Source: Deltaproteobacteria bacterium (lineage in GTDB: Bacteria > Desulfobacterota > GWC2-55-46). From it: 64,000 bases of DNA. Location: contig JACRCC010000048.1 of NCBI GenBank assembly GCA_016234405.1, positions 28,968-92,967 of the forward strand, in the 5' to 3' direction. Of this stretch, positions 3,473 to 58,539 are shown one piece after another. The notes beneath the pieces were generated by a model. It worked only from the letters and a program-made list of their open reading frames with translations, was not told where the DNA came from and did not search any database. Each line of letters starts with the position of its first letter. Positions within the stretch are counted from its first letter, which is position 1. Position numbers and translations under genes: made by a program.

Positions 3473-3562
3473 TGTCATTCTGAGCACATTCGCAACGCTT
3501 CAGTGTAAACTCCGCGAATAAAACGAAAAGCAGATTCTTCGCTTCGCTCTGTTAGAATGACA
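3473..3562. repeat. structured ~90-nt intergenic repeat element, family 1 (copy A), MITE/REP-like with terminal inverted repeats tgtcattctgagc / gctctgttagaatgaca
   Basis: Shares tgtcattctga(g/a)cacattcgc…cagtgtaaactccgcgaa…gaaa…ttcttcgct with the copy at 30767-30860. Confidence 0.6.
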
Positions 3563-9612: not shown

Positions 9613-9615
9613 TAC

Positions 9616-10359: not shown

Positions 10360-10373
10360 CCTTCACCATTCCT

Positions 10374-13340: not shown

Positions 13341-13347
13341 AATTTCT

Positions 13348-13896: not shown

Positions 13897-13910
13897 ATCC
13901 CTCCTTGTGT

Positions 13911-18700: not shown

Positions 18701-18872
18701 AGTAGAGGTTGTCGTGGATGAGGGTTGTCTCTCCGGTGATGAGCATCTTCCTTAGCGTATAGACGAGAAAGAGGGTCGAGACCGCCGCCGCGCACAACTC
18801 TATTGTGAGCGTATGCCTGTCAAATATCTTGCTGAGTTTATTGCCGGAATCCATCATGGGTGATTTTGGCAA
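15768..18872 (-). CDS. YfhO-family membrane protein, paralog 3, with CBM4/9-like insert
   Basis: 1034 aa; HDNLYWNYPIYQFFAENL…PYWNPFSHGGEPFY N-terminal signature and GFDKSWKAYVNGVE C-terminal signature. Internal SPSSEGNSLVQF…VQIDVQDG is homologous to the paralog-2 insert. Confidence 0.5.
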   Translation of the reverse strand: MPKSPMMDSGNKLSKIFDRHTLTIELCAAAVSTLFLVYTLRKMLITGETTLIHDNLYWNYPIYQFFAENLMSLRLPYWNPFSHGGEPFYPALAQLRFYEPAAWLTILLGRFVTNDIVMLFNWNRFIELLVTAFGVHIVLRRFALNVFTRASIIPILLFSSFMLGSFRQDAILNQFIWVPYITYFFLNIIWEKDHSWHNYLMLGAVTGLNWQSYFFTGAWIFSLFFVAGVCIFRIDLLRDFRNTRPSVLRAGAALLIVVMMAAPDVVLFAEKGKFVFPARMVDDAYENKPPLGGPVQYESGPSSLPVSGIIMPYKLIAHTGTFSHISDFIQLIAPDGNDHIRWPNRSLWGKPSEAYMYLGFLPWAISLIGVIAGTHELKRVWLFVLAATALLMLGPAGGLHKALYYVYPPMWFVRHTHTFVLFFIFSLLFFYVIGLNHLFKTWETDIFPGKTEVDLKKYAAPSAVVVLALGAAAYMMFGYTAVKELAKFVSEYLSVFIPLGILTFLLLWKTIGSKRLYAGAVVLHVAAVLVFSNNAHKFLKYMAVSLLIPITVFLILKIINKRSSSKGLFNGYFFALALVIFYICLLLDLTFSLRKTSFLYESAKHPGGAYKVRTTPQRPDWFWQRSVYIEPSQLQGEQSMRYLSVLHRKADALSTVMPDEPIDYTGKKITLVKTSASKKFFDLPLTYSQDGDGGEFKEKKMSDGSVIMSISPSSEGNSLVQFRSSSGSVKDAYVWFSVKAKSMSQAPGGVQIDVQDGVLPVKTVSYGNSGEWETLTVEKHIDGGVDAVFFTLNVKSEARSDAIFKDAAIQYIPLREKTFEYGLRMKRWSSFLLTSNYYKLIHSGAPHQVIEKTFAIGEPQFQFKRHARRVGDDGLRNFFAKMTPEEGVRFLEDTVILSQEAGGGQPAVVPSGGPLKNPFRYTVHDYDYNSIRITAVSDEDGFLYWSDGFDKSWKAYVNGVETGIYRANVNFKAIPLIKGTNEITFVFEPALFKAALSVFYSVFSMSVFAAAFLFLHDKRNNRTDRTDDGKEGER

Positions 18873-18884
18873 GCCTTCGAGTTC

Positions 18885-20456
18885 TTATTGCCTAATCCCT
18901 TTGAAAAAGAACTTGCGGCACATGGAACTCGCAATGAGGTAATAAAACACCCTAAAAAAAACAGTGCCGCCCAAGAGGGTAAGCTCGATGAGCGTCTTCA
19001 ACGACTTCATGTCTTTGTTTGAGACCTCGAACCATTTGCCGCTCCCGCTCTGCTTAGGGTTGAAAAGATTTTTCAGATTGGTCCAATTCAGGTAAAAAAG
19101 GAGATTCGCAAGGAGCACCGTGCCCTCGAGTTCTTTATCCGTAGACCCCTCAGGCACATAAGGCAACGGAGACCTTTTAAAAAGCCCGCCGGTGACAGCC
19201 CCGGCTGAGCTGAAGTTCGCCCACATCGGCTCGACCTTCAATCTATCCCTGACCATTTCATACATGGCGGTGCCGGGATACGGGGTGGCGTTATTGAAGC
19301 GTGCCCTGTCCAGACCGATTTCTTGCGCCAACCTCAGCGCCTTGAGCCTGTCATCGAAAGTTTCGGTGGGAAAACCGAATATAAACGTCGCTTCAACCGC
19401 AAAACCCATGTCCTTCCCGAGCCTTATTGCGTCTACGTTCTCTTTGACCGTTTCTTTTTTGTTGATGAGCAGCATGAGATTTTCGGAGGCGGTCTCGACG
19501 CCGAACATAAGGCTTCCGAAGTTGGCCTCCCGCATCGCCTTCATCAAAGGACGGTCTATGCTGTCGCCGCGCGTCTGAACCCCGAAAGACGCCTTCTTGT
19601 GAAAACCCCTCTTTTTTATAAGCTCGCACAGTTCAAACACGCGCTCCCTGTTCCCGGTAAAATAGTCGTCAAAGAAAGTAATGTTTGGCTGTTTGAGCGT
19701 GTTGATGAGGTAGTCGAGCTCCGCGATGACCCTTTCCGAGGAAATATATCTATACCTTCTTTTGGTTATGACCCTCTGAGAGCAGAATATGCAATCAAAA
19801 GGGCATCCCCTCGACGTCAGGATGAAGCCGAGGTTATAACGGGTCGGGTCGTACATGTCGTACGGGAATATCGGCACGTCGTCTACGTTTACGGTCCTCT
19901 CAGACGGTTTCGCATAGACGATGCGACCGTCGGCCGGTTCGATAAAGCCGATGTTCTCAAGCCTGTCTTTATCTATGTTCCCGCCCTTTATCTGATTAAG
20001 AAGTTCGAGGAAGGTATACTCGCCCTCGCCCTTTACGACGAAATCCACGCAGCCGCTTCGCAACACCTCATCAGGCATGACCGTTGCGTGAATGCCGCCG
20101 AAGACAATGACGGCGTCTTTGTCAACCGATTTAACGAGCCTTGCTATCCTATACCCGCTCGCGACATTAGCGGTCATCACGCTTATGCCTACGACCCGCG
20201 GGCGATTGCAGCCGTTGAGTATCTCCGTGATACTTGCCCTGTCAAGGTCTACAAGCTCATTGTCTACAATCCTTACGGAGTGTCCTTTTGACCTTAAAAA
20301 GCCGGCAAGGATGCCTATACCTATCGGAACGCTTCTCGGCACGAACCTCTTGAACCTCCCAAGCTGCTCGTTGAACGGCGACACGAGGACGACGTCGTGC
20401 ATTAAATCCTCCATTGCAGGATTAATAAACGCATTCATGATGAACGCGCAAGTCAA
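18885..20456 (-). CDS. cobalamin(B12)-binding-domain radical SAM protein (class B radical SAM, methyltransferase-like)
   Basis: N-terminal B12-binding-like Rossmann segment (VVGISVMTANVASGY…VIVFGGIHAT) followed by TSRGCPFDCIFCSQ (CxxxCxxC). Confidence 0.65.
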   Translation of the reverse strand: MTCAFIMNAFINPAMEDLMHDVVLVSPFNEQLGRFKRFVPRSVPIGIGILAGFLRSKGHSVRIVDNELVDLDRASITEILNGCNRPRVVGISVMTANVASGYRIARLVKSVDKDAVIVFGGIHATVMPDEVLRSGCVDFVVKGEGEYTFLELLNQIKGGNIDKDRLENIGFIEPADGRIVYAKPSERTVNVDDVPIFPYDMYDPTRYNLGFILTSRGCPFDCIFCSQRVITKRRYRYISSERVIAELDYLINTLKQPNITFFDDYFTGNRERVFELCELIKKRGFHKKASFGVQTRGDSIDRPLMKAMREANFGSLMFGVETASENLMLLINKKETVKENVDAIRLGKDMGFAVEATFIFGFPTETFDDRLKALRLAQEIGLDRARFNNATPYPGTAMYEMVRDRLKVEPMWANFSSAGAVTGGLFKRSPLPYVPEGSTDKELEGTVLLANLLFYLNWTNLKNLFNPKQSGSGKWFEVSNKDMKSLKTLIELTLLGGTVFFRVFYYLIASSMCRKFFFKGIRQ

Positions 20457-21239: not shown

Positions 21240-24200
21240 TCATTTGGCAGTGATTATTTCCGAAGACTGCTCCTGCGCAGCTACGGACTTAGGGGAAATT
21301 ACCCCTTTGCGCCCAAAAATCTTTAAGGCGCCTATGTCGTCGAGGATAGAATAAAACACCGGCACCACGGCAAGGGTAACGAGAAGGCACATGGCCTGCC
21401 CTCCGACTACGACTATCGCCATGGATGCGCGCGACGACGAGCCGTCGCCTTGTCCGAGCGTTACCGGCAGCATCCCCGCGATAATCGCGAGCGTGGTCAT
21501 GAGTATGGGGCGCAGACGCACCTTGTTGGCCAGCATCTGGGCGGCGAACTTATCCATGCCCCTGCCCCTCAACGTGTTGGTGTAGTCAATCTGGAGTATC
21601 GCGTTTTTCTTTACGACCCCGATGAGGATGAATAGCCCCATCACGCTGTAGATGTTGATTGAATTGCCGGCCATGATGAGGCTCAAGATCCCGAACGGTA
21701 TGCTGAGGAATATGGATACCATGATCGTTACGGGATGTAGAAAACTCTCAAACTGGGCCGCAAGCACCATGTAAATGAATATGATGGACAGGACAAACGC
21801 TACCGCAAAATTGAAAAACGCCTCCTGCATTATCTTGGCCCTTCCTATAAAAGTCGTGCCGTATTCCTGCGGAAGGTTTAGCTCAACGAGGGCTTTATTT
21901 GCCGCGGCAGTTGCCGAGCCGAGCGGGAGGTTGTAGAGGTTCGATATGACGGTGATTTGCCGCTCCTGCGCGTACCTGTCAATCTGCCCGGGACTCATGC
22001 CTTCGGAGAGCGCAGCAAGGTTGTCGAGCCTTACGAGTCTGCCTTGACTCCCCGGCACCGTCAGCCTCGATATGGTTGCCGCGTCTTTCCTGTAGTCCGC
22101 CATGACGCGCAGCCGCACATTATACTGCTCATCCCCTTCCCTGTAAAACGACACCCTCTCGCCGCCGACAAAAGTGCGCAGCGACGCGGCTATCGCCTCG
22201 ACCTTGACGCCAAGGTCAGAGGCCTTTTGCCTGTCAATATGCACCTGCACCTCAGGGTGTCTGCGCGCCTGACCCGTGTCCGTGTCAACGAAGCCGGGGA
22301 TTGATTTAAGTTTTTTTATCATGGCGGCGGAATACTCGTCGAGCTTGGAAAGCTCAGGGCCGCGTATTACGAAGTTAAACGGTGTGGCCCTGAACCCGCC
22401 GCCGGATATCATGCTGATGGTCTGAACGCCGGCGCGCAGCTCCGGAAACTTCAGCATGGCGCTGCGGGCGTCCTGCATGATTTCGTTTTGGGTGCGGCTG
22501 CGCGCGCTCATGTGCTTCAAGCCGACATATATGGAGGCGTCCGTAACGTTGGAAAGATACTGTCCGCGCACGCCGATGTTGGTGAACAGACGCTCGACCT
22601 CAGGAATTTTTTTTACCTCGACCTCGACGGCAGTGAGGAGGAGCGCGCTCTTTTCAAGGGACGAGCCTGCGGGTGTCTCGACGACTATCTCAAATTCGCT
22701 CATGTCGTCGTCCACGATGAACTCTTTTTTAGCGATGCCTCCGAGCAATATCGTGGAGAGGAATATCCCGACCGCGACAACGGCGACGATAGCGCGATGG
22801 TTGAGACACCACCTGAGAAGAGCGAGGTATGCCCCCTCCATCTTGGAGTAAAACCACGAGTCCTTGGCCTCGGTCTTCTTTTCCTTGAGGAGGCGGGACG
22901 AGAGCATGGGCGTCAAGGTGAAGGCCACGAGAAGGGATATCATAATCGAAAACGTCGCGGTAAGACCGAAACTCTTCCAGAACCTGCCCACAAGCCCGGA
23001 CATGAAGGCCACCGGCAGGAAAATCACCACGAGCGAAATGGTCGTTGCCATGACCGCAAGGGAAATCTCCCTTGTGCCGTGGATGGCCGCGTCAACCGGG
23101 CTTCTCTTCTCCTCCTCAATATGTCTGAAGATGTTCTCGATGACGATTATCGCGTCGTCAATGACTATGCCTGTGCAGACCGAGAGGGCCAAGAGCGTCA
23201 TGTTGTTGAGCGTAAAGCCCAGAAACCTCATTGCCGTAAACGTCCCTATGATGGACGCCGGTATCGCAAGCGCGGCGATGAGCGCGGCCCTCCAGTTGCG
23301 GATGAAAAAGAGTATAATGACGCTTGCGAAGATTGACCCCAATATGAGGTGTTCCTCGACCTGAGCCACGGATTTTTTTATGAATTTGGATTGATCGGTT
23401 ACGATCTGAATCTGTATGTCCGGGGGCAGCGTGGTCTTTATATATTTAAGCGCGTCTTTTACGCTTTCGGCCACCTTGACGGTGTTGGTGCCCGACTGCT
23501 TGCGGACAAACAGCGTAACGGCGTTCATGCCGTCAAGCCGGGATAAAGACCTCGGTTCTTCCTCGCCGTCAACGGCGCGTCCAACGTCTTTGATGCGCAC
23601 GGGCGCGCCTTTATAATCTGCTACGATGAGTCCGTTGAACCCCTCCACGCTTTCAACCCTGCCCATCGTGCGCAGCCCCTCTTCATGGCCGCCCCACGTT
23701 ATTCGCCCTCCGGGGACCTCTACGTTTTGCCGCCTGAGGCTGTCCTTGACATTTATAATTGAAAGGTTATAGGCGTTGAGGCGCTCCGGGTCTATGAAGA
23801 CCTGCACCTCGCGTTTTCTGCCGCCCACGACGGCAACTGCGCCGATGTCTTTAATGCCCTCGAGATGGCGCTTGATTTTCTTTTCGGAAATCTCGGTTAC
23901 TTCCCTCGCGCTGCGTTTTCCGGAGACCACGAGCGACATGACCGGGGCGGAGTCGGGGTCGAATTTTTCGATTATCGGGGGGTCTGTGCCAGGGGGGAAC
24001 GCGGCCGACGCGGCGCCGACCTTTTCTCTAACGTCGTTGGCAGCCGCGTCTATGCTCCGTTCAAGGAGAAACGTGACGAAGACCTGCGACTGGCCTTCGA
24101 TGGTGGTGCTCCTGAGTTCATCAACGCCGTTTATCGTGTTTACGGCCTCTTCGACCCTCTTGGTTATCTGGCTTTCAATCTCCTCGGGGCTGGCGCCGTC

Positions 24201-24353
24201 GAGCCGGGTCGTGATGGTTACGGTCGGGAGGTCCACCTTTGGGAATATGTCAACGCCAAGCTCCCTGTAAGACGCAAGGCCCAGCACCACGAGGCTCAAT
24301 ATCAGCATCGTCGTGAAGACCGGCCTTTTTATGCAGAGTTCATAAAGAGACAT
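21240..24353 (-). CDS. RND multidrug efflux transporter, inner-membrane permease (AcrB/HAE1 family)
   Basis: 1037 aa; N-terminal MSLYELCIKRPVFTTMLILSLVVLGLASYRELGVDIFPKVDLPTVTITT is typical of AcrB. 12-TM architecture with two large periplasmic loops. Confidence 0.85.
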   Translation of the reverse strand: MSLYELCIKRPVFTTMLILSLVVLGLASYRELGVDIFPKVDLPTVTITTRLDGASPEEIESQITKRVEEAVNTINGVDELRSTTIEGQSQVFVTFLLERSIDAAANDVREKVGAASAAFPPGTDPPIIEKFDPDSAPVMSLVVSGKRSAREVTEISEKKIKRHLEGIKDIGAVAVVGGRKREVQVFIDPERLNAYNLSIINVKDSLRRQNVEVPGGRITWGGHEEGLRTMGRVESVEGFNGLIVADYKGAPVRIKDVGRAVDGEEEPRSLSRLDGMNAVTLFVRKQSGTNTVKVAESVKDALKYIKTTLPPDIQIQIVTDQSKFIKKSVAQVEEHLILGSIFASVIILFFIRNWRAALIAALAIPASIIGTFTAMRFLGFTLNNMTLLALSVCTGIVIDDAIIVIENIFRHIEEEKRSPVDAAIHGTREISLAVMATTISLVVIFLPVAFMSGLVGRFWKSFGLTATFSIMISLLVAFTLTPMLSSRLLKEKKTEAKDSWFYSKMEGAYLALLRWCLNHRAIVAVVAVGIFLSTILLGGIAKKEFIVDDDMSEFEIVVETPAGSSLEKSALLLTAVEVEVKKIPEVERLFTNIGVRGQYLSNVTDASIYVGLKHMSARSRTQNEIMQDARSAMLKFPELRAGVQTISMISGGGFRATPFNFVIRGPELSKLDEYSAAMIKKLKSIPGFVDTDTGQARRHPEVQVHIDRQKASDLGVKVEAIAASLRTFVGGERVSFYREGDEQYNVRLRVMADYRKDAATISRLTVPGSQGRLVRLDNLAALSEGMSPGQIDRYAQERQITVISNLYNLPLGSATAAANKALVELNLPQEYGTTFIGRAKIMQEAFFNFAVAFVLSIIFIYMVLAAQFESFLHPVTIMVSIFLSIPFGILSLIMAGNSINIYSVMGLFILIGVVKKNAILQIDYTNTLRGRGMDKFAAQMLANKVRLRPILMTTLAIIAGMLPVTLGQGDGSSSRASMAIVVVGGQAMCLLVTLAVVPVFYSILDDIGALKIFGRKGVISPKSVAAQEQSSEIITAK

Positions 24354-24415: not shown

Positions 24416-25552
24416 TTACTTCCCTGAAACATTAACCCGCGCCCCGTCAAAGAGGGTCGAGAGGTTGGATATCGCCACGGTCTCGCCGGGCGCTATATTG
24501 CCGAGCACCTCAAGCATGCCCTCGGACTTCATGCCGATGTTGACCCTGCGCTCCCGCGCAAGACCGTCTGCGATGACAAATATCTTATTTACGCCTACGA
24601 AGGAATACACTGCCCCCTCCGGCACGAACGGCACGCCTGACTCTTTTTTCGTGATGATGACGCCCTTTGCGAAAAACCCGGGTTTGAGCGCCCTGTCGCG
24701 GTTCGGTATAACCGCCTCCACCTCGAGCGTGCGCGTCTCGGCGTCAATTGCAGGCGAGATGCGTTTTAACGCGCCCTCGAATACGCGGCCGGCAAAGGCG
24801 TCAACCGTTATGCGCACGGTTTGACCGGCCGCTATATCGGACACCGAGGTCCCTGCGATTGCCGCGCGGAATTTGAGTCTTCCGGTGGACACGACCGTAA
24901 ACATCGCGGACTTGTCCCTGACCGCCTCGCCCACCGAGACGAAACGCTTTTTTATCTCCCCGTCAATCGGCGCGGTTATCACCGTGTCGGAAAGGCGCTT
25001 CTTGAAGAGATTGAGCCTTGCCGCCGACTGCCCGACACGGCCCTCGGCCTCCTTATACTGGGCCTCGGTAACGGCATAGAGGGTCTTTATCGAATCGAAC
25101 TGGCTCTGAGAGACCATTGCGTTCTTATAGAGGTCCTCGTATCGCTTGAGATTCGTCCTTGCGTCCGTAACGCGGGCCTTTTCTTTTTCAAGGGTCTTGA
25201 TGTTCGTGAGGTGAGACGCCGAAGCGTCGGCGAGATTGAGCTTCGCCTCCCTCTGGTCGAGGGTGGCAAGCGTTACGCCGGTCTTTACCGTGTCTCCGAG
25301 ATCCGCTGCGATTGTCGCCACGGCGCCCGGGGCCTCGCTGCTCACGATGACCTCTTCCCACGGCGCCAAGGCGCCGGTGGCCTCGACGCTCCTCTCCACG
25401 GCGCGGCCCTCGACAACGCCCGTCTTTACGGTTAATACCTGAGATGCCGTATTGGCCGTAGTGGAATCCTTTGAACATCCAAGAAGGGCAATGCCCCAGA
25501 CAACTACGGCTATAAGAAGGTATACGGCCGGCCTAAGCGTCTTCATATTCAT
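24416..25552 (-). CDS. RND efflux membrane fusion protein (periplasmic adaptor, HlyD/AcrA family)
   Basis: Signal/anchor, then coiled-coil, lipoyl and beta-barrel segments. Stop/start overlap with the TolC-like gene. Confidence 0.75.
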   Translation of the reverse strand: MNMKTLRPAVYLLIAVVVWGIALLGCSKDSTTANTASQVLTVKTGVVEGRAVERSVEATGALAPWEEVIVSSEAPGAVATIAADLGDTVKTGVTLATLDQREAKLNLADASASHLTNIKTLEKEKARVTDARTNLKRYEDLYKNAMVSQSQFDSIKTLYAVTEAQYKEAEGRVGQSAARLNLFKKRLSDTVITAPIDGEIKKRFVSVGEAVRDKSAMFTVVSTGRLKFRAAIAGTSVSDIAAGQTVRITVDAFAGRVFEGALKRISPAIDAETRTLEVEAVIPNRDRALKPGFFAKGVIITKKESGVPFVPEGAVYSFVGVNKIFVIADGLARERRVNIGMKSEGMLEVLGNIAPGETVAISNLSTLFDGARVNVSGK

Positions 25553-26910
25553 TTTTGACCCTCAAGGGGTTTAACGTCTTTCAACTCCAAAAGCAGGACG
25601 CCCGCAGCTGCGCGGAGTTCGAGTCTGGCAGCCGCAAGATCATACGTGGAATTCATCAAAGACCTCTGCGCCGAGATAAGCGTCGCGTCCGCGTCAATCA
25701 CGTCAACGGTCGTCGCAAGCCCGAATTTAAATTGTTCAAAAACCATATTGTAATCTTCCTCCGCTAAAGAGAGCTGCTTTCTATACGCCTCGAGCGCCGC
25801 CTTTACCGATTCTAAACCGTTGAACGCCGCCCTTACTTGAAGCTCGATGTCGCGCTTGAGGAGAAGCCTTCTCAGTTCAGATTCCCTTAACTTGCTCTTG
25901 GCTTCCGACAACTCCGCATAGCGCAGCCCGCCTTCGAATATCGGGACGCTCAGGATTATTGAGCCGGATACGCTCTCCTTCTGATAAAAGGTCGTCCGGG
26001 GGTTCTGCTCCCTCCACGAATAGATGCCCTCGAGCCTCAAGGATGGAAGGAAAAAACCCTTTGCGTAACTGACCCCCTCGGAGGCGGCCCGCTCGTCGAG
26101 CGCGCCCTGCTTGTAATCAAGCCTGTAGGCGTAAGCGAGTTTTAAAATCTCGTTTACGTCGTTACTCAAATCCTGTTTGACGGGAGGTTCGGACACCTTT
26201 ACATCGTCATTTACATTGGTGAGTCTTTTAAGGACGTCCGCCGTATTTTTTAGGTCGCTGCGCGCCTTTATAAGCTCGGCCTCGGCTCCGGCCACGAGCG
26301 CGTCGGCGCGGAGAACCGCGCTCTTCGTAACCTCTCCTACCCGAAGGCGCGCTGAGGCAACCTTGCTGCGCTCCCCTGCCCTTTTAAGCGCGGCCTCTTT
26401 TATCTCAACCTCTTTTTCCGCCTTGAGTACTCCGTAGTATGCGCGGCCTACGGCCCTTATGACGTTCTCCATCGCCCAATCAAGCCCTGCCGCGTTTCTT
26501 TCGCTGATTATGCCGGCTTGGCGCTTTGCGGCCCACTCGCGTCCGCCCGTATAGACCGGCTGGGTAAGCCTTACGTCCACCCTCGATGCGTCGTCCGGCT
26601 GGATAACGAAGCCGCCTGATTTTTTCTGCTCGCTGTATACCGTGTATCCGCCCTCGGCCGTCAATTTGGGAAGAAGCTGAGAGACGGCCTTGTCTACTCC
26701 GCTCTCGGCCTGATTTATCCCCTCCCTCGCCATACCTACGGCCTCGTGGCTCTCGACGGCGAGTCTATAGGATTCGGAAAGCGTGAGGCTCCGTGAAGGG
26801 GGTAATTCCCCCTCACCTGCCGCCGCAAGTCCAGCAACGGGAGACACGAGGAATAATAACGCCGAGAGAAAAATAAAATACTTTATCGGAAGCGGCCGCT
26901 GCATACGCAT
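25549..26910 (-). CDS. TolC-like outer membrane efflux protein (OMF). Start taken at MRMQRPL (26910) rather than the track's 26985
   Basis: Signal peptide MRMQRPLPIKYFIFLSALLFLVSPVAGLA and two repeated alpha/beta halves typical of OMF. A GAGGAG RBS lies upstream of 26910. Confidence 0.65.
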   Translation of the reverse strand: MRMQRPLPIKYFIFLSALLFLVSPVAGLAAAGEGELPPSRSLTLSESYRLAVESHEAVGMAREGINQAESGVDKAVSQLLPKLTAEGGYTVYSEQKKSGGFVIQPDDASRVDVRLTQPVYTGGREWAAKRQAGIISERNAAGLDWAMENVIRAVGRAYYGVLKAEKEVEIKEAALKRAGERSKVASARLRVGEVTKSAVLRADALVAGAEAELIKARSDLKNTADVLKRLTNVNDDVKVSEPPVKQDLSNDVNEILKLAYAYRLDYKQGALDERAASEGVSYAKGFFLPSLRLEGIYSWREQNPRTTFYQKESVSGSIILSVPIFEGGLRYAELSEAKSKLRESELRRLLLKRDIELQVRAAFNGLESVKAALEAYRKQLSLAEEDYNMVFEQFKFGLATTVDVIDADATLISAQRSLMNSTYDLAAARLELRAAAGVLLLELKDVKPLEGQK

Positions 26911-26912
26911 AC

Positions 26913-27662
26913 CTATCTCCTCATCGCCCCCACCCTGCCTTCCCCCAGAGCCGCCTTCCGTCGCCGAGGCCGTGCAGGATAACAAGGCTGATGCCGGAAA
27001 GCGGCGCCGGGGGAGGGATAAGTGGAATGCGGAATCATCATACCGTCGAAAAATATGTTAACGAACGTATCAACGACCTTTTTATTTGGCCTCTTAAAAT
27101 ACGCCTTGAGACCGTAGAGTTCCTGAGAGACGCTGTAATGCACGGTCATACCGGTGAACGCCCTTGCCGCAAGCGCCGGGTCAACGCGCTTGAAGACGCC
27201 TGTTTTTACGAGTTTAATAATTTCTTTTTGGAGAAACGCGAGGAGTTCCAGCGCCTTTGTCCTGATGAAAATCTTTGAGAGGTCTTGCCTTTCAAGGGCG
27301 CTGTAGGTGAGTAACCGGAGGAATGTGTCGTCTTTCTGGTGCTCCGTGATTATGTGCGACGCGACGGTGGAAAAGATGTCTTTGCCCTTCTTGCCGTCAA
27401 GCCTCTTTATCAGGGTCGCCTCTCCCCTCTTGTCGCCGCACTGCATATCAATAATAGCCCTGTAGAGGTCTGCTTTCTTCTTGAAGTGCCGGAATATGAC
27501 CGCCTCGCTTATGCCGGCCTTTGAGGCTATCTCGCGCGTAGTGGCGCCCTTAAACCCGTTTCGCGCGAAAAGGGACATGGCGACCTTGACTATCTGGTCT
27601 TTCCTGTCGGCTGCCGCAAGCCGTTTTTTAACCGTTTTTTTTCCTTTGGGTTTGCCAACCAT
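26913..27662 (-). CDS. TetR-family transcriptional regulator with an unusual ~40-aa C-terminal extension
   Basis: N-terminal HTH TREIASKAGISEAVIFRHFKKKADLY. At 249 aa it is longer than typical TetR. The tail is encoded across repeat family 2 copy R1. Confidence 0.7.
   Translation of the reverse strand: MVGKPKGKKTVKKRLAAADRKDQIVKVAMSLFARNGFKGATTREIASKAGISEAVIFRHFKKKADLYRAIIDMQCGDKRGEATLIKRLDGKKGKDIFSTVASHIITEHQKDDTFLRLLTYSALERQDLSKIFIRTKALELLAFLQKEIIKLVKTGVFKRVDPALAARAFTGMTVHYSVSQELYGLKAYFKRPNKKVVDTFVNIFFDGMMIPHSTYPSPGAAFRHQPCYPARPRRRKAALGEGRVGAMRR
26943..27011. repeat. ~68-nt stem-loop repeat, family 2 (copy R1)
   Basis: Arms cccagagccgccttccg / cggaaagcggcgccggg flank a loop containing cgccgaggc.g.gcaggataa.aa. 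The loop core is about 80% identical by eye to copy R2 at 33123-33190. Confidence 0.55.
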
Positions 27663-27665
27663 GTT

Positions 27666-27705
27666 AGTAAGCGCTTACTATAATGCTGAAAGGGATTTTT
27701 GTCAA
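27666..27705 (-). promoter_or_regulatory. candidate sigma70 promoter (TTGACA-17-TATAGT, minus strand) with overlapping 14-bp perfect palindrome AGTAAGCGCTTACT; putative tetR promoter/operator
   Basis: Minus-strand -35 at 27700-27705 and -10 at 27677-27682. Palindrome at 27666-27679 lies between the -10 and the tetR ATG (27662). Confidence 0.4.
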
Positions 27706-27711
27706 GCGGTA

Positions 27712-28695
27712 TTACTCCCTGTTTATCAGGACGCCGGCGGATGCTGCAATGCGCCCATCCGAGTCCACGATGACCGCCTCAACGCCTTTAAGCCTCTTGA
27801 CTAACGCCATGCCCTTAATTGGGCCGAGGACGAATACGGCGGTGGAGAGCGCGTCGCTCGTCATGGTGTCCGGCGCGATTACGGTTACGCTCATGACGCC
27901 TTTGGCCGGATAGCCGGTTGACGGATCAATGATGTGATGATAGAGAACGCCGTCTTTTATAAAAAACCTTTCGTAATCACCGGAGGTGGAGATTGAAATG
28001 TCCTTGAGTTCGAGCTTCGCAATGAGTCTGCCTTTTTCTCTTGGGTGCTTTATGCCGATTTTCCACCCATCGAGGGTGTCGCCGCCCTGCACGCGCATGT
28101 CGCCGCCCGCCTTGAGGATAACGTTTTTTATGCCGAGCGCAGCGACGGCCTGCATGGCCTTGTCGACCGCATACCCCTTTGCTATTGCCCCGAGGCCGAT
28201 GGCAACCCCCCTTTTTTTGAGGAATACGGTTAGTTTGTCCGGGTCGAGTTCTATAAATCTGTAGTCAACGTTTGCCCTCGTTTTTTTTACTTCTTCATCG
28301 GTTGGAACTCTCTCTTTCCCTTTTGTAAAATCCCACAGACCCCTTGTTCCGGCCCACGTAATGTCAAACGCCCCTTCCGTCAGCCTTGAGACTTCTTGAG
28401 CCGCGGCAATAACCTTAAAAAGCTCATTCGACACCTTTACGGGCATTATGCCGGCATCTTTGTTTATCTTTGAGACCGGGCTGCCCGGAATCCACTCGCT
28501 CATCTCCTCTTCGATGCGCCGCATCTCGCTTATCGCCGCATCAAATGCCTTTTCGCCCATGACAACGTCATCCACGACAACCGTCATCTCAAAATCCGTT
28601 CCCATGACAACGGCGGTCTTTTTGACGGTTGCGGCGAACGACGTGGAAGAAAGCGCTGTAAGGATTAAGGTTATGAAAAAGAGGAAGGTTCGCAT
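27712..28695 (-). CDS. apbE: FAD:protein FMN transferase (ApbE family), secreted/lipoprotein type
   Basis: Signal peptide MRTFLFFITLILTALSSTSFA. ApbE-like …VMGTDFEMTVV… and C-terminal GDYERFF…H.IDP motifs. Confidence 0.7.
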   Translation of the reverse strand: MRTFLFFITLILTALSSTSFAATVKKTAVVMGTDFEMTVVVDDVVMGEKAFDAAISEMRRIEEEMSEWIPGSPVSKINKDAGIMPVKVSNELFKVIAAAQEVSRLTEGAFDITWAGTRGLWDFTKGKERVPTDEEVKKTRANVDYRFIELDPDKLTVFLKKRGVAIGLGAIAKGYAVDKAMQAVAALGIKNVILKAGGDMRVQGGDTLDGWKIGIKHPREKGRLIAKLELKDISISTSGDYERFFIKDGVLYHHIIDPSTGYPAKGVMSVTVIAPDTMTSDALSTAVFVLGPIKGMALVKRLKGVEAVIVDSDGRIAASAGVLINRE

Positions 28696-28746
28696 GGAGT
28701 GAATATAACACAAAAAGCGGATTCTTCACGGAGAGCTTGCAGGCGC

Positions 28747-29976
28747 TTAAAAAAAGAGTCTGAGCGCGGCCATCACGACGTGGGCGTTAACGCCTATGGA
28801 TTGGGTGTAGTATTCGTATTTTGCCTCGGCAATGCTAACGCCGATTGGGAACGAACCGGCGCCCTTCCCTGTATCCTTGAACTTATAGCCGAGTTTTACG
28901 CCTGCAAGACGGGAGTCGAATTTCAGGAGCTGCGGTGAGGAGGATTTATACTGCTCAGGCCCGTCGTAATTGTCGAGCGCGAAGTAGGCCTTGTCCTGCG
29001 TGTAGTATCTGTAATTAAGCCGCATGACTACCTGCTCCGAGAGATATTTGTTATACTCGACCTCGGACATGTAGGAATTCACGCCCCAAGAATCGTCGTA
29101 GTAACGCAAGGTAAGCCTTACGGCCGAACGGTTGAACGCGTAGGAACCGTCGTAGTTGAAGTATTGGCTTACGCCGAGTATGTAGGCGTTCCTGAAACGC
29201 TTCGAAGGGAAGGACTCTTCGCGGCATGACGCGGACTTGGCCGTGCATGAAGAAGACGGCGTGCCGGAGAGAGGCACGAGCCTGATGCCCTCGGATTCGT
29301 AACCGTTTGAGTTGTTCCTCGAATAACCCGCCTGCACGAGCGTATAAGGGGTGAGCGCCTGCGTAACGCCGGCAAAGTAGTTATCCGTATTCCTGCCTTT
29401 TGCGCCGTCCATGAAAACGCCCTTCACGCGGTCGTTGTTTTTTGAATACGCGGCCGTGATGGTGGTGTTTTTATTGAAGAGGTCTTTTTTGAGCGTGAAC
29501 GTGGGCGTATGAGAGGTGTAGTCCTTTTCCTTGCTGTAGTCGTAATACGCCTCGACGCCCACAACGTCCTTGAACTCGTGCTTGAGGCCCGCCGTAAAGG
29601 CGTGGCGCGTGTCTTTTGCGGAATTCCCGCCCGAAGACACCGCGCTTGAGGCGCCTGAGGCCGCGGCAACGCCTCTGGAGGAATTGCCGCGAAGAGTCTG
29701 ATTCCCTCCCTTATTTACGGAATCACCTCCGCCGCCTTCGCCCCCTTCCCCGAAGCTCGGATTTATGAGGTCTATGTTATATTTGAAATACGTCGAGGTC
29801 TGGAGATTCAAGTCTTTATTGAGCGCGAAGACGCCGGAATATACCGTAACGCCGTTGTTGAAGCTGTGCATGTAGGCTTGAGTCGCGGCATAATCCTCGG
29901 CCGAGGCAACAACGCAAAGGGCAGGCAAAGAAAGTACGGCCGCACCGACAATGACGGCTAATTTAATTGCAGCCAC
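28747..29976 (-). CDS. predicted outer-membrane beta-barrel protein (DUF3570-like)
   Basis: Signal peptide. Alternating aromatic/polar beta-strand pattern, many Y/N/S, C-terminal aromatic (…LRLFF). Context with DUF4266 and ApbE matches the known DUF3570 neighbourhood. Confidence 0.45.
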   Translation of the reverse strand: MAAIKLAVIVGAAVLSLPALCVVASAEDYAATQAYMHSFNNGVTVYSGVFALNKDLNLQTSTYFKYNIDLINPSFGEGGEGGGGDSVNKGGNQTLRGNSSRGVAAASGASSAVSSGGNSAKDTRHAFTAGLKHEFKDVVGVEAYYDYSKEKDYTSHTPTFTLKKDLFNKNTTITAAYSKNNDRVKGVFMDGAKGRNTDNYFAGVTQALTPYTLVQAGYSRNNSNGYESEGIRLVPLSGTPSSSCTAKSASCREESFPSKRFRNAYILGVSQYFNYDGSYAFNRSAVRLTLRYYDDSWGVNSYMSEVEYNKYLSEQVVMRLNYRYYTQDKAYFALDNYDGPEQYKSSSPQLLKFDSRLAGVKLGYKFKDTGKGAGSFPIGVSIAEAKYEYYTQSIGVNAHVVMAALRLFF

Positions 29977-30184
29977 AGCCGCCTCCGCTCACCCCGAAAC
30001 TGCCGGCAGATCCCTCGCGGGTCGCAAGGAAATGTTCTCGAACGCCCTTTTCCTCCTTGTTGTAATCGGATTGCATGATGGGGTCCGCAAGATACTCCTT
30101 TTCCCACGGTTTTACGCTCGCGCATCCGGACAACCCCAAGCCAACGGCTGACACAAAAAAGACCGCCCAAAAAATCCTTCTCAT
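29963..30184 (-). CDS. DUF4266-domain small lipoprotein (start taken at MRRIFW, 30184)
   Basis: Lipobox LSGC. C-terminal …EHFLATREGSAGSFGVSGGGCGCN is the characteristic DUF4266 ending. Confidence 0.5.
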   Translation of the reverse strand: MRRIFWAVFFVSAVGLGLSGCASVKPWEKEYLADPIMQSDYNKEEKGVREHFLATREGSAGSFGVSGGGCGCN

Positions 30185-30690
30185 CTGCCATCTCCCTTTC
30201 TCAGAAGTTCCTCGACTTCCCCTGCCCATTGCTGCGGATCGCTCTCCCTAAAACCAAAGTGGACGTATCTCACATAACCGTCCTTATCTATGATGAACGC
30301 AGACGGCATGAGCGCGTTATACGCAGGCATTACCTTAGGTTCAGTATCAAGGAGCACGTGAAAATACTCGGAAAACTTAGGTAATCTTGCAAGATAGTCG
30401 TCAACGTGCGACCTCTTTTTGTCTATACTTATCGCAAGCGCCGCGACTGAGCCTTTGTTTTTATCAACAAGTTTGTTTATCTCAGGGAGTTCTATTTTAC
30501 AGGAGGCGCAGTAGGTTGACCAGAAATCAACGAAGACCACCTTACCCTTGAAATCCGACAACGAAATAGTTTTACCGCTCAAGTCCGGCAAAACTATGTC
30601 AGGCGCTTTTTCGTTCACAAGCCCCGCCAATGCCACGCCCGCGGACGCGAAGAAGAAAATTACCGCCGCGAAGAACAACTTGATATTCAC
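30181..30690 (-). CDS. TlpA/ResA-family thiol:disulfide oxidoreductase (thioredoxin fold, periplasmic)
   Basis: Signal anchor; WSTYCASCK (WCxxC active site); AhpC/TSA-thioredoxin-like length. Confidence 0.7.
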   Translation of the reverse strand: MNIKLFFAAVIFFFASAGVALAGLVNEKAPDIVLPDLSGKTISLSDFKGKVVFVDFWSTYCASCKIELPEINKLVDKNKGSVAALAISIDKKRSHVDDYLARLPKFSEYFHVLLDTEPKVMPAYNALMPSAFIIDKDGYVRYVHFGFRESDPQQWAGEVEELLRKGDGR

Positions 30691-30766
30691 TGCGTCTCCT
30701 CAAAAAAAACGGATTTTTAGCCTTCTGAGCGAAGTGAAGCCCTTAGCCCTGAGTATGTTCACTTAT

Positions 30767-30860
30767 TGTCATTCTGAACACATTCGCGGAGTTTACACTG
30801 AAGTGTTGCGAATGTGCTCAGTGTAAACTCCGCGAACGGGGCGAAATCCGCTTCTTGCTC
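30767..30860. repeat. intergenic repeat element family 1 (copy B), containing an 18-nt perfect inverted repeat ttcgcggagtttacactg / cagtgtaaactccgcgaa
   Basis: Shares its 5' end tgtcattctga(a)cacattcgc and its core cagtgtaaactccgcgaa…gaaa…cgcttcttgct with copy A. Looks like a head-to-head internal duplication of the core. Confidence 0.6.
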
Positions 30861-30907
30861 ATCATATTTATATATTATTGAAGATTAAGGATAGATTAGA
30901 TTCATAA

Positions 30908-31642
30908 TTACCATCCAAGCCTGAGCCTTTCGGCGAGCCTCTCGGGCAGTCCGGCGGCTATTATCTTGCCGGCGGCAGTCTGTATATCGTATTCGACCTT
31001 ATGGTAAGTTATGAGCCTCTCAGCCGTGTCGTAGACGACGAAAGACGCGCGGGGGTCTCGGTTGCGCGGCTGCCCTACGCTGCCGGGGTTCACGAGATAT
31101 TTAATCCCCTTTTCAACCTTTATCGAGTTATCCATGTTCAACAACACCGAGCCCTCTACGCTGAGATAGGCCATACTGATGTGCGTATGTCCGAAAAAAC
31201 ATACGTTAAAGCCTTCAAATTCCCCAAGGAGCATAAAATTCCGCGCAGCGTCCCTCGCGCACTGGATATAATCGTCAAGGGAATTTATGCTGCCGTGCAC
31301 GGCCAAAAAACTGCGCCCCTCCTTGTGAAATTTGGGCAGGTTTTGCAGAAATTCTTTCCCCTCATCCGTAATCACCGTCCGCGTCCACAAAAGCGCGGCT
31401 TCGGCCTGTTGGTTGAAATTAGAGGTGTCGGCGAGCCCGGCGGCCCTCTCGTCATGGTTGCCCATGACGCACTTGACCCCGTGAGACCTCACGAGAGAAA
31501 TGCACTCGTTGGGGTTGGCGTTATACCCTATAATATCGCCGAGGCAGATGGTCTTTTTGACGTCGAGCTTCGCAATGGTTTCGAGCACGGATACAATGGC
31601 CTCGAGGTTCGAGTGTATGTCTGAGATTATCGCGTATCGCAT
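30908..31642 (-). CDS. calcineurin-like metallophosphoesterase (YfcE/MJ0936-type)
   Basis: MRYAIISDIHSN, GDIIGYN, GNHD, GHTH phosphoesterase motifs. Confidence 0.65.
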   Translation of the reverse strand: MRYAIISDIHSNLEAIVSVLETIAKLDVKKTICLGDIIGYNANPNECISLVRSHGVKCVMGNHDERAAGLADTSNFNQQAEAALLWTRTVITDEGKEFLQNLPKFHKEGRSFLAVHGSINSLDDYIQCARDAARNFMLLGEFEGFNVCFFGHTHISMAYLSVEGSVLLNMDNSIKVEKGIKYLVNPGSVGQPRNRDPRASFVVYDTAERLITYHKVEYDIQTAAGKIIAAGLPERLAERLRLGW

Positions 31643-31743
31643 CTATTGTATTGTGGGTGTATGGGCGGAGGGGACAAGAGGGCGCGGCCGCATGACCACG
31701 CAGGAAGGAACGCTTACGGATGTTGCCATATCATATCCTCTCT

Positions 31744-32070
31744 TCAATGCACCCTGCCCTTTACGTCCGTCCCTTCGAATGCGGCCATGCCGCCCTTGAG
31801 CGGGTCGTCGGCAAACCTGTCCCTGCATCTCTTGCACAGGATATATATGAAGTCCTTTACGACGTCCTCTTCGAGCGCCTTGGCGTCCATATCCTCCATT
31901 GCCGAGAGCAGCTCGTTTATGTCGTGGTCCACGTTATCGCCGTAATCCTCCAAATAGCCGTCGAAATCCGCGAAGGTGCGTATCTCGACTATATACTTTA
32001 GGCTGCCCTTGGGAAGTTCCCTGCCGCAACCGTTACACCTGAGTTTGTGCATCGTTAATAATCCTTTCAT
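31744..32070 (-). CDS. small zinc-ribbon protein (two CxxC pairs) with acidic middle region; function unknown
   Basis: CNGCGREL … CKRCRDRF. 108 aa, or 101 aa if it starts at MHKL. Confidence 0.35.
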   Translation of the reverse strand: MKGLLTMHKLRCNGCGRELPKGSLKYIVEIRTFADFDGYLEDYGDNVDHDINELLSAMEDMDAKALEEDVVKDFIYILCKRCRDRFADDPLKGGMAAFEGTDVKGRVH

Positions 32071-32224
32071 AAGGCCGAATGCGGCGCACTGCTTTAAGCG
32101 GGCATGTTTGTCCGCGCAGCCAACCCTGCTTGTAAAAATCTCCGCGGTATATGCGGAGATTTTTTATCTTAACCCTAAACATGCCCCTTGTCAAATCAAA
32201 TGGGTCTGTGTTAAATTCTATCGG

Positions 32225-33109
32225 ATGCCGGAGATAAATACCATACTTTCACGCGATTCTTACCTCCTTTACGCGGAGTTGAGGCTGTTTTGGCTCGTCG
32301 CGTTCGTCTATGGGATGTCTTTTGCGCTTTTCATAATACACGGCGCAACGCGCCAATCCGCCCCCGGAAAGATAGGCCGGATGCTGCTGTGGCTCGCGGT
32401 ATCCCTGCATATAGCCCTCATTGTGCTCCGCACGTTAGAGGCTGGCAGGGCGCCGTTTCAGACGCTCTATGAAAGCCTTTCGTGGTTTGCCTGCTCGGCT
32501 GCCCTCACATATCTCTATGTCTCCGGAAAATGGGAGGATATCCACCTGCCCGGGGGTATCGTGTCGGGAATATCCCTTGGCGCGTGCCTCTATGCGCTCC
32601 TCGCGCGCTCCCCTGCGGTTGAGCCTCTCGCCCCCGCGCTTCAGAGTTATTGGTTCGAATGGCACGTGGCGCTCGCGTTTTTCTCCTACGCCGTCTTTGT
32701 GGTAAGCGCGTCAATCGAGGCAATCTGCCTTATAGTGATGCCTTTCGTAAAAAGAGGCCGCCGCGTCTACGGCCTGACGATAAACGCCGTTGATGAACTG
32801 CAAACGCTCGCGCACAAACTCGTTCTTTTGGGGTTTCCGCTCCTTACCTTCGCCGTGCTCTCCGGCGCGGCGTGGGCAAACGAGGCATGGGGCAGGTACT
32901 GGAGCTGGGACCCGAAAGAGACATGGTCTTTGATAACGTGGACGGTCTTCGCCGTCTACCTCCACTCCAAGACCATACCGGCCATGAAGGGGCTTCCGGC
33001 GTCGGTCTTTAATTTAATCGGGTTCGTCTGCATGATGATGACGTTCCTCGGCGTGAACTGGCTTGCAAAGCTCCTCGGCATCCCGTCCCTGCATGTCTAC
33101 GCCGTGTAA
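32225..33109 (+). CDS. ccsA: cytochrome c-type biogenesis protein CcsA/ResC (system II heme handling; WWD domain). Start moved to MPEINT (32225); track ORF begins 31976
   Basis: WGRYWSWDPKETWSLITW is the CcsA/ResC WWD signature. Polytopic with conserved His residues. Confidence 0.75.
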   Translation: MPEINTILSRDSYLLYAELRLFWLVAFVYGMSFALFIIHGATRQSAPGKIGRMLLWLAVSLHIALIVLRTLEAGRAPFQTLYESLSWFACSAALTYLYVSGKWEDIHLPGGIVSGISLGACLYALLARSPAVEPLAPALQSYWFEWHVALAFFSYAVFVVSASIEAICLIVMPFVKRGRRVYGLTINAVDELQTLAHKLVLLGFPLLTFAVLSGAAWANEAWGRYWSWDPKETWSLITWTVFAVYLHSKTIPAMKGLPASVFNLIGFVCMMMTFLGVNWLAKLLGIPSLHVYAV

Positions 33110-33244: not shown

Positions 33245-34744
33245 ATGACATACGACCGGAAAAACATCCTTGCCCTGACTTCAATAATGGCCGCCTTTCA
33301 AAAGGCTAAAGACCTCAAGGTCTTGAGATGGGTCTACCGGAGGCTCGCCTCCATCACCACCTCGGTCTACGTCCTCCTTGCCACGGCCTTTTTGTATCTC
33401 ATAGGCACGATATTTCCGCAGGGCGGCAACTACTCCGAATACGCAAAGACCGGGGGCAGGTTCGTTTGGGCCGTGGATGCCTTTGAACTGCTCGATTTTT
33501 TCACCTCTCCGCTCTTCCTCGTTTGCGCCTTCATACTTTTGGCTAACCTCGTCGTGTGCGCGTATGACCGGTATCCGATGATTTTTTCAAAAGGCCCATA
33601 TCCGGCGGAATTCAAACCCACGCACACGTTCTTTCTCACGCACGACATAGCAGACGCCCACGGCGAGGTAAGGGGGATTTTACGGGCAGATCTCGGATTT
33701 AAACTCATCAGCAAAGACGGTTCGTGGATAGTGATGGAACGGGGACTTCCGTACAAACTCCTTACGTGGCTCTATCACCTCGGCATAATCGCGCTCTTTT
33801 TGGGCTTTATTCTAACTTATCTCTTTGCCTTTGAAGACAAACTTACGCTCTGGCCGGGCAAGAGCAACTCCGTGGCGCCTTCGGTTACCGGACGGGTCCA
33901 ATATCTCTTAGGGATGAAGCCTTCGAGGGGCGACTGGGTGTTAATCCTCGACGAATTTATGACGGAATACCACCGGTCCCCGAAACTCGACTACCCTAAG
34001 GACAAATTCTCCCGCCTTGCAACGGGGCTTGGCTGGAACCCGCCGGCCTATATTCTCGAAGGCGAAACGCTATTCCCCAAGGACTGGAAGTCGGCCGTGA
34101 GGGTCATGCAGGGGATACGGATGCTCGACCAAAAGGTTATCGAGGTGAACGACCCCATGAAGTTCGGCGGCTACACGTTCTATCAGGAGGGGTTCGAGCA
34201 GAGGTTGAGCGTCAGGATTGACTCCAACCCCATCCCGCTCATAGTCAAGACAAACGAGGACGTCTATATCCCCGGCCTCGACCACGCCATAAGGTTCGAC
34301 ACCCTGAGAAACGGCAAACTCTTTAAGTTGAACGGCGAGACCGAAGAGATAAAACCATACACGGAAATCAAGGCCGCCGCAAAGGACGTCTCAGGAAAAT
34401 ACGAAGACGCGGGCGCGATAGCGGCCGGAGGGTCGATCCAGATGGGGGGCAAGAGGATAACCCTGTCGGACTTCGAGGAAGGCGCGGTCATCAGCTACCG
34501 TTACGACCCCGGTGTGCCGCTTTTGTGGGCAAGCGGCATATTCGTGCTCGCAGCCATGACGCTGCGCCTCTGGGGTTCTTGGCATATTCTCGCGTACCGG
34601 ATTGACGATAACGACGGCATGGTATTCCTCGACATATACGTCGCCTCAAAAGGGCTGCTCGCGGACGCCGAAAAGCTCGTAAAAAGACTCGAATACCACC
34701 TGACAAGATACGACCTCAAACCGGCCCAGATGCCTCCGGCGTAG
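33245..34744 (+). CDS. ccsB: cytochrome c biogenesis protein ResB/CcsB (Ccs1) family
   Basis: N-terminal TM with LIGTIFPQGG (ResB signature). Large periplasmic domain and C-terminal TM. Adjacent to ccsA. Confidence 0.65.
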   Translation: MTYDRKNILALTSIMAAFQKAKDLKVLRWVYRRLASITTSVYVLLATAFLYLIGTIFPQGGNYSEYAKTGGRFVWAVDAFELLDFFTSPLFLVCAFILLANLVVCAYDRYPMIFSKGPYPAEFKPTHTFFLTHDIADAHGEVRGILRADLGFKLISKDGSWIVMERGLPYKLLTWLYHLGIIALFLGFILTYLFAFEDKLTLWPGKSNSVAPSVTGRVQYLLGMKPSRGDWVLILDEFMTEYHRSPKLDYPKDKFSRLATGLGWNPPAYILEGETLFPKDWKSAVRVMQGIRMLDQKVIEVNDPMKFGGYTFYQEGFEQRLSVRIDSNPIPLIVKTNEDVYIPGLDHAIRFDTLRNGKLFKLNGETEEIKPYTEIKAAAKDVSGKYEDAGAIAAGGSIQMGGKRITLSDFEEGAVISYRYDPGVPLLWASGIFVLAAMTLRLWGSWHILAYRIDDNDGMVFLDIYVASKGLLADAEKLVKRLEYHLTRYDLKPAQMPPA

Positions 34745-55050: not shown

Positions 55051-55051
55051 G

Positions 55052-58535: not shown

Positions 58536-58539
58536 GGTC

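Follow-up and report, generated by a model that had tools for sequence, protein, structure and literature searches.

The closest described relatives of the system considered here were reported by Méheust et al. (eLife 2021), who followed the neighbourhoods of 'orphan' apbE genes to DUF3570 proteins with two conserved [S/T]GA[S/T] motifs, and who counted 227 DsbD-linked clusters comprising ApbE, DUF3570, a thioredoxin-like protein (counted there as PF13899) and DUF4266, together with 316 further clusters with the same four genes but without a co-located DsbD (PMC8238504). The DUF3570 protein of Chlorobium luteolum (ABB24424.1) acquired its flavin on co-expression with the cognate ApbE (ABB24423.1), lost the flavin only when both serines were mutated, and was modified even though it was recovered from the insoluble pellet (PMC8238504). 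It was also proposed that the C-terminal CXC of DUF4266 redox-cycles, and a VIT1 transporter in 25 clusters was taken as a hint towards iron, the function of the system being left uncertain; DUF3570 is not described as a barrel in the text of that paper (PMC8238504). Here we describe a four-gene operon at positions 27712-30690 (minus strand) of a 64000-nucleotide stretch of the Deltaproteobacteria contig JACRCC010000048.1 (the whole of this stretch being referred to below as the window) which, judged by its sequence, is a member of this published ApbE/DUF3570/thioredoxin-like/DUF4266 set, in the class without DsbD. It shares with the published clusters the four families in one operon, the [S/T]GA[S/T] motif of DUF3570, the CXC of DUF4266 and a secreted ApbE. 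It differs from them in having one flavin site instead of two, with Ala in place of Asp, in having a partner of the AhpC-TSA/Redoxin type (TlpA/ResA-like, with the motif YCASC) instead of PF13899, and in a clade-specific CX6C loop. The genes of the operon, with lengths in amino acids (aa) and alternative limits from the longest open reading frame (ORF), are as follows:

30181-30690, minus strand: thioredoxin-like gene, 169 aa, with a GTG start behind an AGGAG ribosome-binding site
29963-30184, minus strand: DUF4266 gene, 73 aa, PF14086 (ATG at 30184; longest ORF to 30229)
28747-29976, minus strand: DUF3570 gene, 409 aa, PF12094
27712-28695, minus strand: apbE, 327 aa, PF02424 (likely ATG at 28695; longest ORF from TTG at 28713)

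The ORF listing and the sequence show these four minus-strand genes filling exactly the interval given by a first-pass annotation of this DNA, and all four of its family assignments held when checked with hidden Markov models, with E-values far beyond chance. The stop codon of the thioredoxin-like gene and the start of the DUF4266 gene share an ATGA (30181-30184), and the DUF4266 and DUF3570 genes overlap by 14 nucleotides (nt), a GGAGG ribosome-binding site preceding the DUF3570 start. That annotation had described all four genes as overlapping, which is true of the first three, whereas a gap of 33-51 nt lies between DUF3570 and apbE. No terminator was found between the four genes, the terminator scan being nowhere above shuffle expectation, and an Rfam scan of 27500-32100 gave a chance-level ryfA match only (E = 0.17). 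Directly after the apbE stop lies a near-consensus sigma-70 promoter on the minus strand (TTGACA-17-TATAGT, 27705-27677), ahead of tetR and an RND efflux operon, indicating that the four-gene unit ends at apbE.

The ApbE protein matches PF02424 over the whole profile (positions 1-266 of 266) with an E-value of 1.7e-88 and a score of 297 bits against a cutoff of 25.6 bits, and it can be aligned from end to end with flavin transferases of known structure, the matches in the PDB being TM1553 (1vrm, 1e-50), Listeria FmnB (7esa, 4e-45), T. pallidum Ftp (4xdt, 7e-42) and V. cholerae ApbE (6nxi, 3e-40). Alignments to 7esa and 4xdt show that the catalytic residues S244, H260 and D287 are kept, as are R249, T291, the LGAIAKG segment and the aromatic W74, and that the Mg2+ ligands are intact. 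We take the Asp and Thr of the DALSTA segment to be equivalent to T. pallidum D284 and T288, LGAIAKG to correspond to A162 and K165 of the same protein, and W74 to stand at its position 55. The S244/H260/D287 set corresponds to S257/H273/D301 of FmnB and S241/H257/D285 of the V. cholerae enzyme, and R249 to R262 of FmnB (residues as named in PMC12052999). The N-terminus, MRTFLFFITLILTALSSTSFA followed by Ala, reads as a Sec signal peptide ending in SFA with cleavage before that Ala, and carries no lipobox. On these grounds the enzyme looks fully competent. The secreted ApbE of the first-pass annotation is therefore borne out by the family match and the signal peptide, and the catalytic residues, whose loss on alignment it had named as telling against the assignment, are intact.

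The same annotation saw no flavinylation motif in the neighbouring genes, and considered the substrate unidentified and DUF3570 not a clear candidate; neither view can be maintained. Published experiments show that DUF3570 is an ApbE substrate (PMC8238504), with which the conserved SGAS of the window protein agrees. This protein, which matches PF12094 with an E-value of 9.6e-31 (107 bits against a cutoff of 25 bits), holds the [S/T]GA[S/T] flavinylation core as S107-G108-A109-S110 (codons at 29647-29658, minus strand) in the context RGVAAASGASSAV, and Ser110 is the predicted site of a flavin mononucleotide (FMN) phosphoester. A strict pattern, D[AGSV]x[ST][GAS]A[ST], matched none of the window ORFs of 60 aa or more, and missed the DUF3570 site because the leading Asp is Ala. 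The bare core [ST]GA[ST] occurs in three window ORFs of at least 120 aa, among which DUF3570 is the only credible bearer; the other two, at 51569-51964 (plus strand, antisense to a methyltransferase gene) and 58023-58667 (minus strand, no Pfam family), were set aside without a full check.

Conservation of the site was assessed in two sets of sequences, namely 120 close homologues (at 44-100% identity, every one of metagenomic or metagenome-assembled genome (MAG) origin and with PF12094) and 129 full-length representatives of the whole family, obtained from an exhaustive search of 1.8 billion representatives. No contig on record was found to encode exactly the window protein. An exact [ST]GA[ST] is present in 90 of the 120 close homologues, and with few exceptions their site column reads S-[G/S]-A-S, amid a loop that is otherwise highly variable in both length and sequence; most of the clade has Ala or another non-Asp residue at the leading position. 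In a tested ApbE target, changing this Asp to Ala had minor effects only, and seven-residue tags placed in loops or at termini get flavinylated (PMC12052999). Across the family, sites of the form xDAV[ST][GS]A[ST] number one in 73 representatives, two in 32, three in seven and none in 17, so that two sites are not universal in DUF3570. Local alignment pairs the SGAS of the window protein with the second canonical xDAVSGAS site of two-site members.

The first-pass annotation had also predicted a DUF3570-like outer-membrane β-barrel, and here Pfam supplies the family and structural modelling the barrel. The signal peptide ends in ASA, before Glu, and the C-terminus reads LRLFF, the last residue being Phe, Tyr or Trp in 111 of 119 close homologues and in 98 of the 129 family representatives. 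An AlphaFold2 model built from a 20-sequence alignment has 16 long antiparallel strands, with a mean predicted local distance difference test (pLDDT) score of 83 and a predicted template modelling (pTM) score of 0.76, and a Foldseek comparison of this model with the PDB returned outer-membrane barrels only, i.e. OccK/OccD, OmpG, BcsC (template modelling score 0.52), PgaA and AlgE. We accordingly refer to DUF3570 as a predicted 16-strand outer-membrane barrel. The SGAS core falls within a 50-residue loop (residues 72-121, between strands 3 and 4) containing 14 Gly and 10 Ser, which is disordered in the model. Topology was derived from the strand order rather than from coordinates, with periplasmic termini assumed; as the odd-to-even connections total 129 residues against 43 for the even-to-odd connections, the flavin loop would lie on the long-loop, presumed extracellular, side of a protein that the model suggests is located in the outer membrane. 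On the same side, by the model strand order, is a 33-residue loop between strands 9 and 10 that carries C244-X6-C251 (codons at 29224-29247, minus strand). Both cysteines are invariant in the closer of our alignments (A2), and exactly two Cys, mostly as CX6C, are found in 113 of 119 close homologues, whereas the pair is absent from 77 of the 129 family representatives; it may form either a structural or a redox-active disulfide. A literature search found no paper joining flavinylation, ApbE, the outer membrane and a barrel.

Related loci were collected by scanning GTDB species genomes with alignment A2, which gave 28 loci, all from uncultured Deltaproteobacteria/Thermodesulfobacteriota or Nitrospirae except for one truncated contig labelled Anaerolineaceae. 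By tblastn with the window proteins, the order thioredoxin-like gene, DUF4266, DUF3570 is kept in all 28, which upholds the earlier statement that the cluster is conserved in other genomes, and apbE lies directly downstream of DUF3570 in 24. As for the exceptions, one locus (L028) ends at the contig edge and another (L004) has approximately 1 kb left, L009 has unrelated genes downstream, and L014 has inserted genes that, by eye, look like a toxin-antitoxin pair. In L018, a 246-aa DsbD_TM protein (PF02683, 6e-17) is encoded between DUF3570 and apbE, which ties this clade to the published DsbD link. A Fur-family regulator is found near the cluster in five related loci. None of CcsA, ResB or a metallophosphoesterase was found within 6 kb in the 28 loci, indicating that the cytochrome-maturation genes beside the operon in the window are incidental neighbours and that the thioredoxin-like gene is not their ResA. 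The redox context drawn by the first-pass annotation from NapC and CcsA/ResB therefore finds no support in synteny; the CcsA and ResB genes of the window are real, and NapC/NirT is 23 kb from the cluster.

Two further features of the related loci were noted. In five (L008, L010, L011, L026 and L027) the gap between DUF3570 and apbE is 440-670 nt, compared with 33-51 nt in the window; in it lie a short conserved ORF, encoding a membrane peptide with a single helix (e.g. MDERNGIMTTTGIFEIIANLAIIVTIASVVLMP), and conserved GC-rich non-coding sequence. In approximately ten, a cytochrome b561-dihaem cytochrome c fusion (PF01292 + PF09626) and a DUF1924 cytochrome are encoded upstream of the thioredoxin-like, DUF4266 and DUF3570 genes; they are located at 1244-2937 in L001 and at 166-1679 in L004, where they directly adjoin those genes and run in the same direction. 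These cytochromes could represent an alternative electron input. Searches of the window by tblastn with the b561-dihaem c fusion, DUF1924, a metallo-β-lactamase-fold protein and Fur gave no match.

The DUF4266 protein, called a small lipoprotein ending in GGGCGCN by the first-pass annotation, proved to be just that: it matches PF14086 with an E-value of 1.2e-20 (74.6 bits against a cutoff of 27 bits), has a lipobox (LSG before the Cys, with Ala at +2), and its Gly-rich C-terminal tail ends as stated. Among the orthologues at the 28 loci the C-terminal GVSGGGCGCN is invariant and a lipobox is recognizable in most. The thioredoxin-like protein, whose signal peptide ends in ALA before Gly, matches AhpC-TSA (PF00578, 2e-21) and Redoxin (PF08534, 1e-20), and also PF13905 and PF00085; a weak match to SCO1/SenC (25.6 bits against a Pfam cutoff of 22.8 bits) was found as well. 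Its scores lie under every NCBIfam equivalog cutoff, the best being ResA at 88 bits (6e-25; cutoff 170), with TlpA at 51 bits (cutoff 230), so that it remains a secreted CxxC thioredoxin-fold protein and not an equivalog-level TlpA or ResA. The active site was earlier given as WCxxC, but the sequence reads YCASC, within the motif CASCKIELP, and is an outlier: each of the 25 orthologues that yielded the motif has WC[PGAST]PC. It is unusual for a thioredoxin-fold reductase to lack the Trp and the Pro together, and the change could shift the redox potential or signal decay.

We consider that the four genes probably encode an extracytosolic electron-transfer module which works as follows. Exported, periplasmic ApbE, with flavin adenine dinucleotide (FAD) and Mg2+, would attach FMN through a phosphoester to Ser110 of DUF3570. 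As the site is in a flexible loop, attachment may be possible before DUF3570 folds, and the flavinylation of the insoluble C. luteolum protein fits modification of an unfolded barrel precursor. DUF3570 would then insert into the outer membrane, with the flavin loop either on the long-loop side or folded into the lumen. The Gly-rich CGC tail of DUF4266 would serve as a mobile two-electron disulfide/dithiol shuttle, exchanging electrons with the TlpA/ResA-like protein, which in turn would receive them from a membrane protein of the CcdA/DsbD type whose gene would lie outside the window (in L018, within the operon). Electrons would pass between the CGC thiols and FMN, and from there to an acceptor, for which iron is the leading candidate because of the published VIT1 association (PMC8238504) and the Fur regulators near five of the related loci. 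The direction of flow is probably reductive. This account draws on what is set out above, namely the genes and motifs present, the intact catalytic residues, the coupled translation of the first three genes, the conserved gene order and the barrel fold model, and on the published flavinylation of a DUF3570 protein by its own ApbE; from these we infer that Ser110 is flavinylated, that DUF3570 is in the outer membrane with the topology given, in which order and direction electrons move, and what finally accepts them. The more general reading of the first-pass annotation, an extracytoplasmic ApbE flavin-transferase cluster whose physiological function is uncharacterized, still holds.

Several observations weigh against the proposed module. 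The first canonical site of two-site DUF3570 proteins (VDAVSGAS, at the end of strand 3) reads NIDLINPS in the window protein and is lost, and the remaining site, VAAASGAS, has Ala for the leading Asp. The flavin loop has a pLDDT below 50, so its placement relative to the barrel is not fixed by the model. PF13899, the family of the published thioredoxin-like partner, is not among the Pfam matches of the thioredoxin-like protein, and the Y-C-A-S-C active site (30505-30519) is atypical. Finally, no DsbD/CcdA protein (PF02683) was found among the window genes scanned (64 kb).

The same components could be imagined to run in the oxidizing direction, in the manner of a sulfhydryl oxidase, with electrons passing from envelope or surface thiols through the thioredoxin-like protein, the DUF4266 CGC and the DUF3570 flavin to an external oxidant. 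There is a precedent in yeast Erv2, an ERV/ALR thiol oxidase in which a flavin is paired with a C-terminal CXC shuttle disulfide (PMC4019985), and both the invariant C-G-C on the Gly-rich tail of DUF4266 and the conserved CX6C on the flavin-loop side of the barrel would suit such a role. TlpA/ResA-type and DsbD/CcdA proteins are, however, parts of reductive pathways, and with a DsbD gene inside the operon at L018 and in 227 published clusters we regard an oxidizing system as unlikely.

A stronger degree of doubt attaches to the suggestion that ApbE mainly serves a target elsewhere, e.g. an FMN_bind protein such as RnfG, NqrC or NosR, or a DUF2271 protein, and that DUF3570 is a mere neighbouring outer-membrane channel. 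It would account for an SGAS without the Asp that opens D-x-x-[S/T]-G-A-[S/T] and for the two loci (L009 and L014) in which apbE does not adjoin DUF3570, and our view of this genome is 64 kb wide. Nevertheless, DUF3570 has been shown by experiment to be an ApbE substrate (PMC8238504), the S-[G/S]-A-S column is kept in nearly all 120 close homologues while the loop around it varies, and apbE follows DUF3570 in 24 of the 28 loci, the gap in L014 being an apparent toxin-antitoxin insert; the suggestion is therefore very unlikely in our judgement. Additional targets of ApbE would not contradict the proposed module.

We give hardly any credence to a role in metal handling, in which the DUF4266 CGC would bind a thiophilic metal, e.g. 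Cu(I), and be kept reduced by the TlpA-like protein. C-terminal CXC motifs can bind Cu(I), and TlpA, the model for such a role, reduces copper chaperones; the SCO1/SenC match and the Fur regulators near five related loci point the same way. That match is nevertheless beneath the much stronger AhpC-TSA and Redoxin matches, the operon has no metal transporter or chaperone genes, and a dedicated ApbE and conserved flavin site would be left unexplained. Just as improbable is a ResA role for the thioredoxin-like gene, in which it would belong with the neighbouring CcsA/ResB genes for cytochrome c maturation and be unrelated to DUF4266, DUF3570 and ApbE, since, although ResA is its best NCBIfam match (6e-25) and CcsA/ResB are encoded 1.3 kb upstream on the opposite strand, the 88-bit score is far under the 170-bit cutoff and the gene shares its ATGA with DUF4266, the two being adjacent at all 28 loci, with no CcsA or ResB within 6 kb.

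The genes around the operon to which reference has been made, including those of the resistance-nodulation-division (RND) efflux system, are:

3867-4433: NapC/NirT
21240-24353: AcrB-type protein of the RND efflux operon
24416-25552: third ORF of the RND efflux operon, whose position suggests a membrane-fusion subunit (family not checked)
25549-26985: OEP of the RND efflux operon
26913-27662: tetR, downstream of the minus-strand promoter at 27677-27705
31976-33109, plus strand: CcsA, by Pfam and NCBIfam matches
33245-34744, plus strand: ResB, by Pfam and NCBIfam matches

At the related MAG loci the cluster is followed by TetR in ten cases and by OEP in 11, indicating that this neighbourhood is conserved in the lineage. 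On the other side of the operon, the 217-nt gap upstream of the thioredoxin-like gene contains a perfect 17-nt inverted repeat (CGCGGAGTTTACACTGA ... TCAGTGTAAACTCCGCG, 30785-30834), overlapped by a second possible pairing (CACATTCGC / GCGAATGTG). A 14-nt arm recurs at 3500-3513 within a related element at approximately 3480-3530 (TTCGCGGAGTTTACACTGA...GCGAATGTG.TCAGAATGACAA); the repeat pattern has three matches where 0.18 would be expected and no Rfam family, and it looks like an element of the repetitive extragenic palindrome or miniature inverted-repeat transposable element (REP/MITE) kind. The longest CcsA ORF is overlapped at its 5' end by a 108-aa ORF (31744-32070, minus strand) with two CxxC pairs and no Pfam family, probably a zinc ribbon; as the Cytochrom_C_asm match begins at residue 163, the start of CcsA is probably well downstream of 31976.

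Further away, the region 7153-20456 (minus strand) encodes three very large membrane proteins of 819, 988 and 1034 aa with YfhO-like C-termini, for which the Pfam evidence is borderline, the gathering cutoff being narrowly passed by the 988- and 1034-aa proteins and missed by the 819-aa protein. Between their genes are those for a short-chain dehydrogenase, two radical-SAM proteins (one of them with a B12-binding domain) and a Laminin_G_3 protein, and the region is an unusual envelope-modification cluster. The AT skew is +0.25 to +0.275 at 54001-58000, over minus-strand MurJ and PMT_2 genes, and lies between -0.13 and +0.16 in all other 2-kb bins of the window; the high values probably reflect the codon composition of genes for very hydrophobic proteins.

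Both the gene set and the flavinylation target have been known since the 2021 paper, to which the window contributes a further example from an uncultured deltaproteobacterial lineage. What goes beyond the text of that paper is the 16-strand barrel model and the place of the flavin site in it, within a disordered loop on what we presume to be the side of the cell surface. The window system also shows three minor variant features, i.e. a single flavin site without Asp, a Redoxin-type YCASC partner and an added CX6C loop. The placement of barrel and flavin loop, and the existence of a single-site clade with CX6C, sharpen the question of the physiological role of DUF3570. A flavin that truly lay in or beyond the outer membrane would offer a route for electrons across that membrane without haem.

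The classical targets of ApbE are the FMN_bind domains of NqrC/NqrB, RnfG/RnfD, NosR, PceC and PplA. The enzyme family is the same, as would be the phosphoester bond to the final Ser/Thr of D-x-x-[S/T]-G-A-[S/T], but the acceptor in the window is a disordered loop of a predicted barrel instead of an FMN_bind domain, and it bears no sign of a folded flavin pocket. With the CcdA/DsbD-TlpA/ResA pathways the operon shares a secreted CxxC thioredoxin fold with a downstream Glu, the sequence MPS at the cis-Pro position of TlpA and ResA, and, in L018, a DsbD_TM protein; it differs in the Tyr that replaces the near-universal Trp before the first Cys, and in its likely client, which would be a lipoprotein with CGC in place of apocytochrome c or Sco/CoxB. 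The likeness to ERV/ALR and QSOX oxidases is one of functional analogy, i.e. a flavin combined with two distal Cys made mobile by a flexible tail, to which QSOX adds a thioredoxin-fold partner; there is no kinship of sequence or fold, and the window system would use covalent FMN and three separate envelope polypeptides.

A more tentative extension, which on present evidence we think rather unlikely, is that DUF3570, DUF4266 and the TlpA-like reductase make up a conduit without haem that carries electrons from thiols to the flavin and across the outer membrane. In this conduit, FMN on the long surface-side loop L2 would dip into the lumen and meet the CGC tail of DUF4266, inserted from the periplasmic side. 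If this were true, the system would be a functional counterpart of MtrAB, e.g. reducing extracellular Fe(III) or another surface oxidant. MtrAB porin-cytochromes are outer-membrane electron conduits; the window system would work without haem, with a smaller barrel of 16 strands and with one covalent FMN and a disulfide as its centres, yet on this conduit reading both would combine an outer-membrane barrel with a periplasm-facing redox partner.

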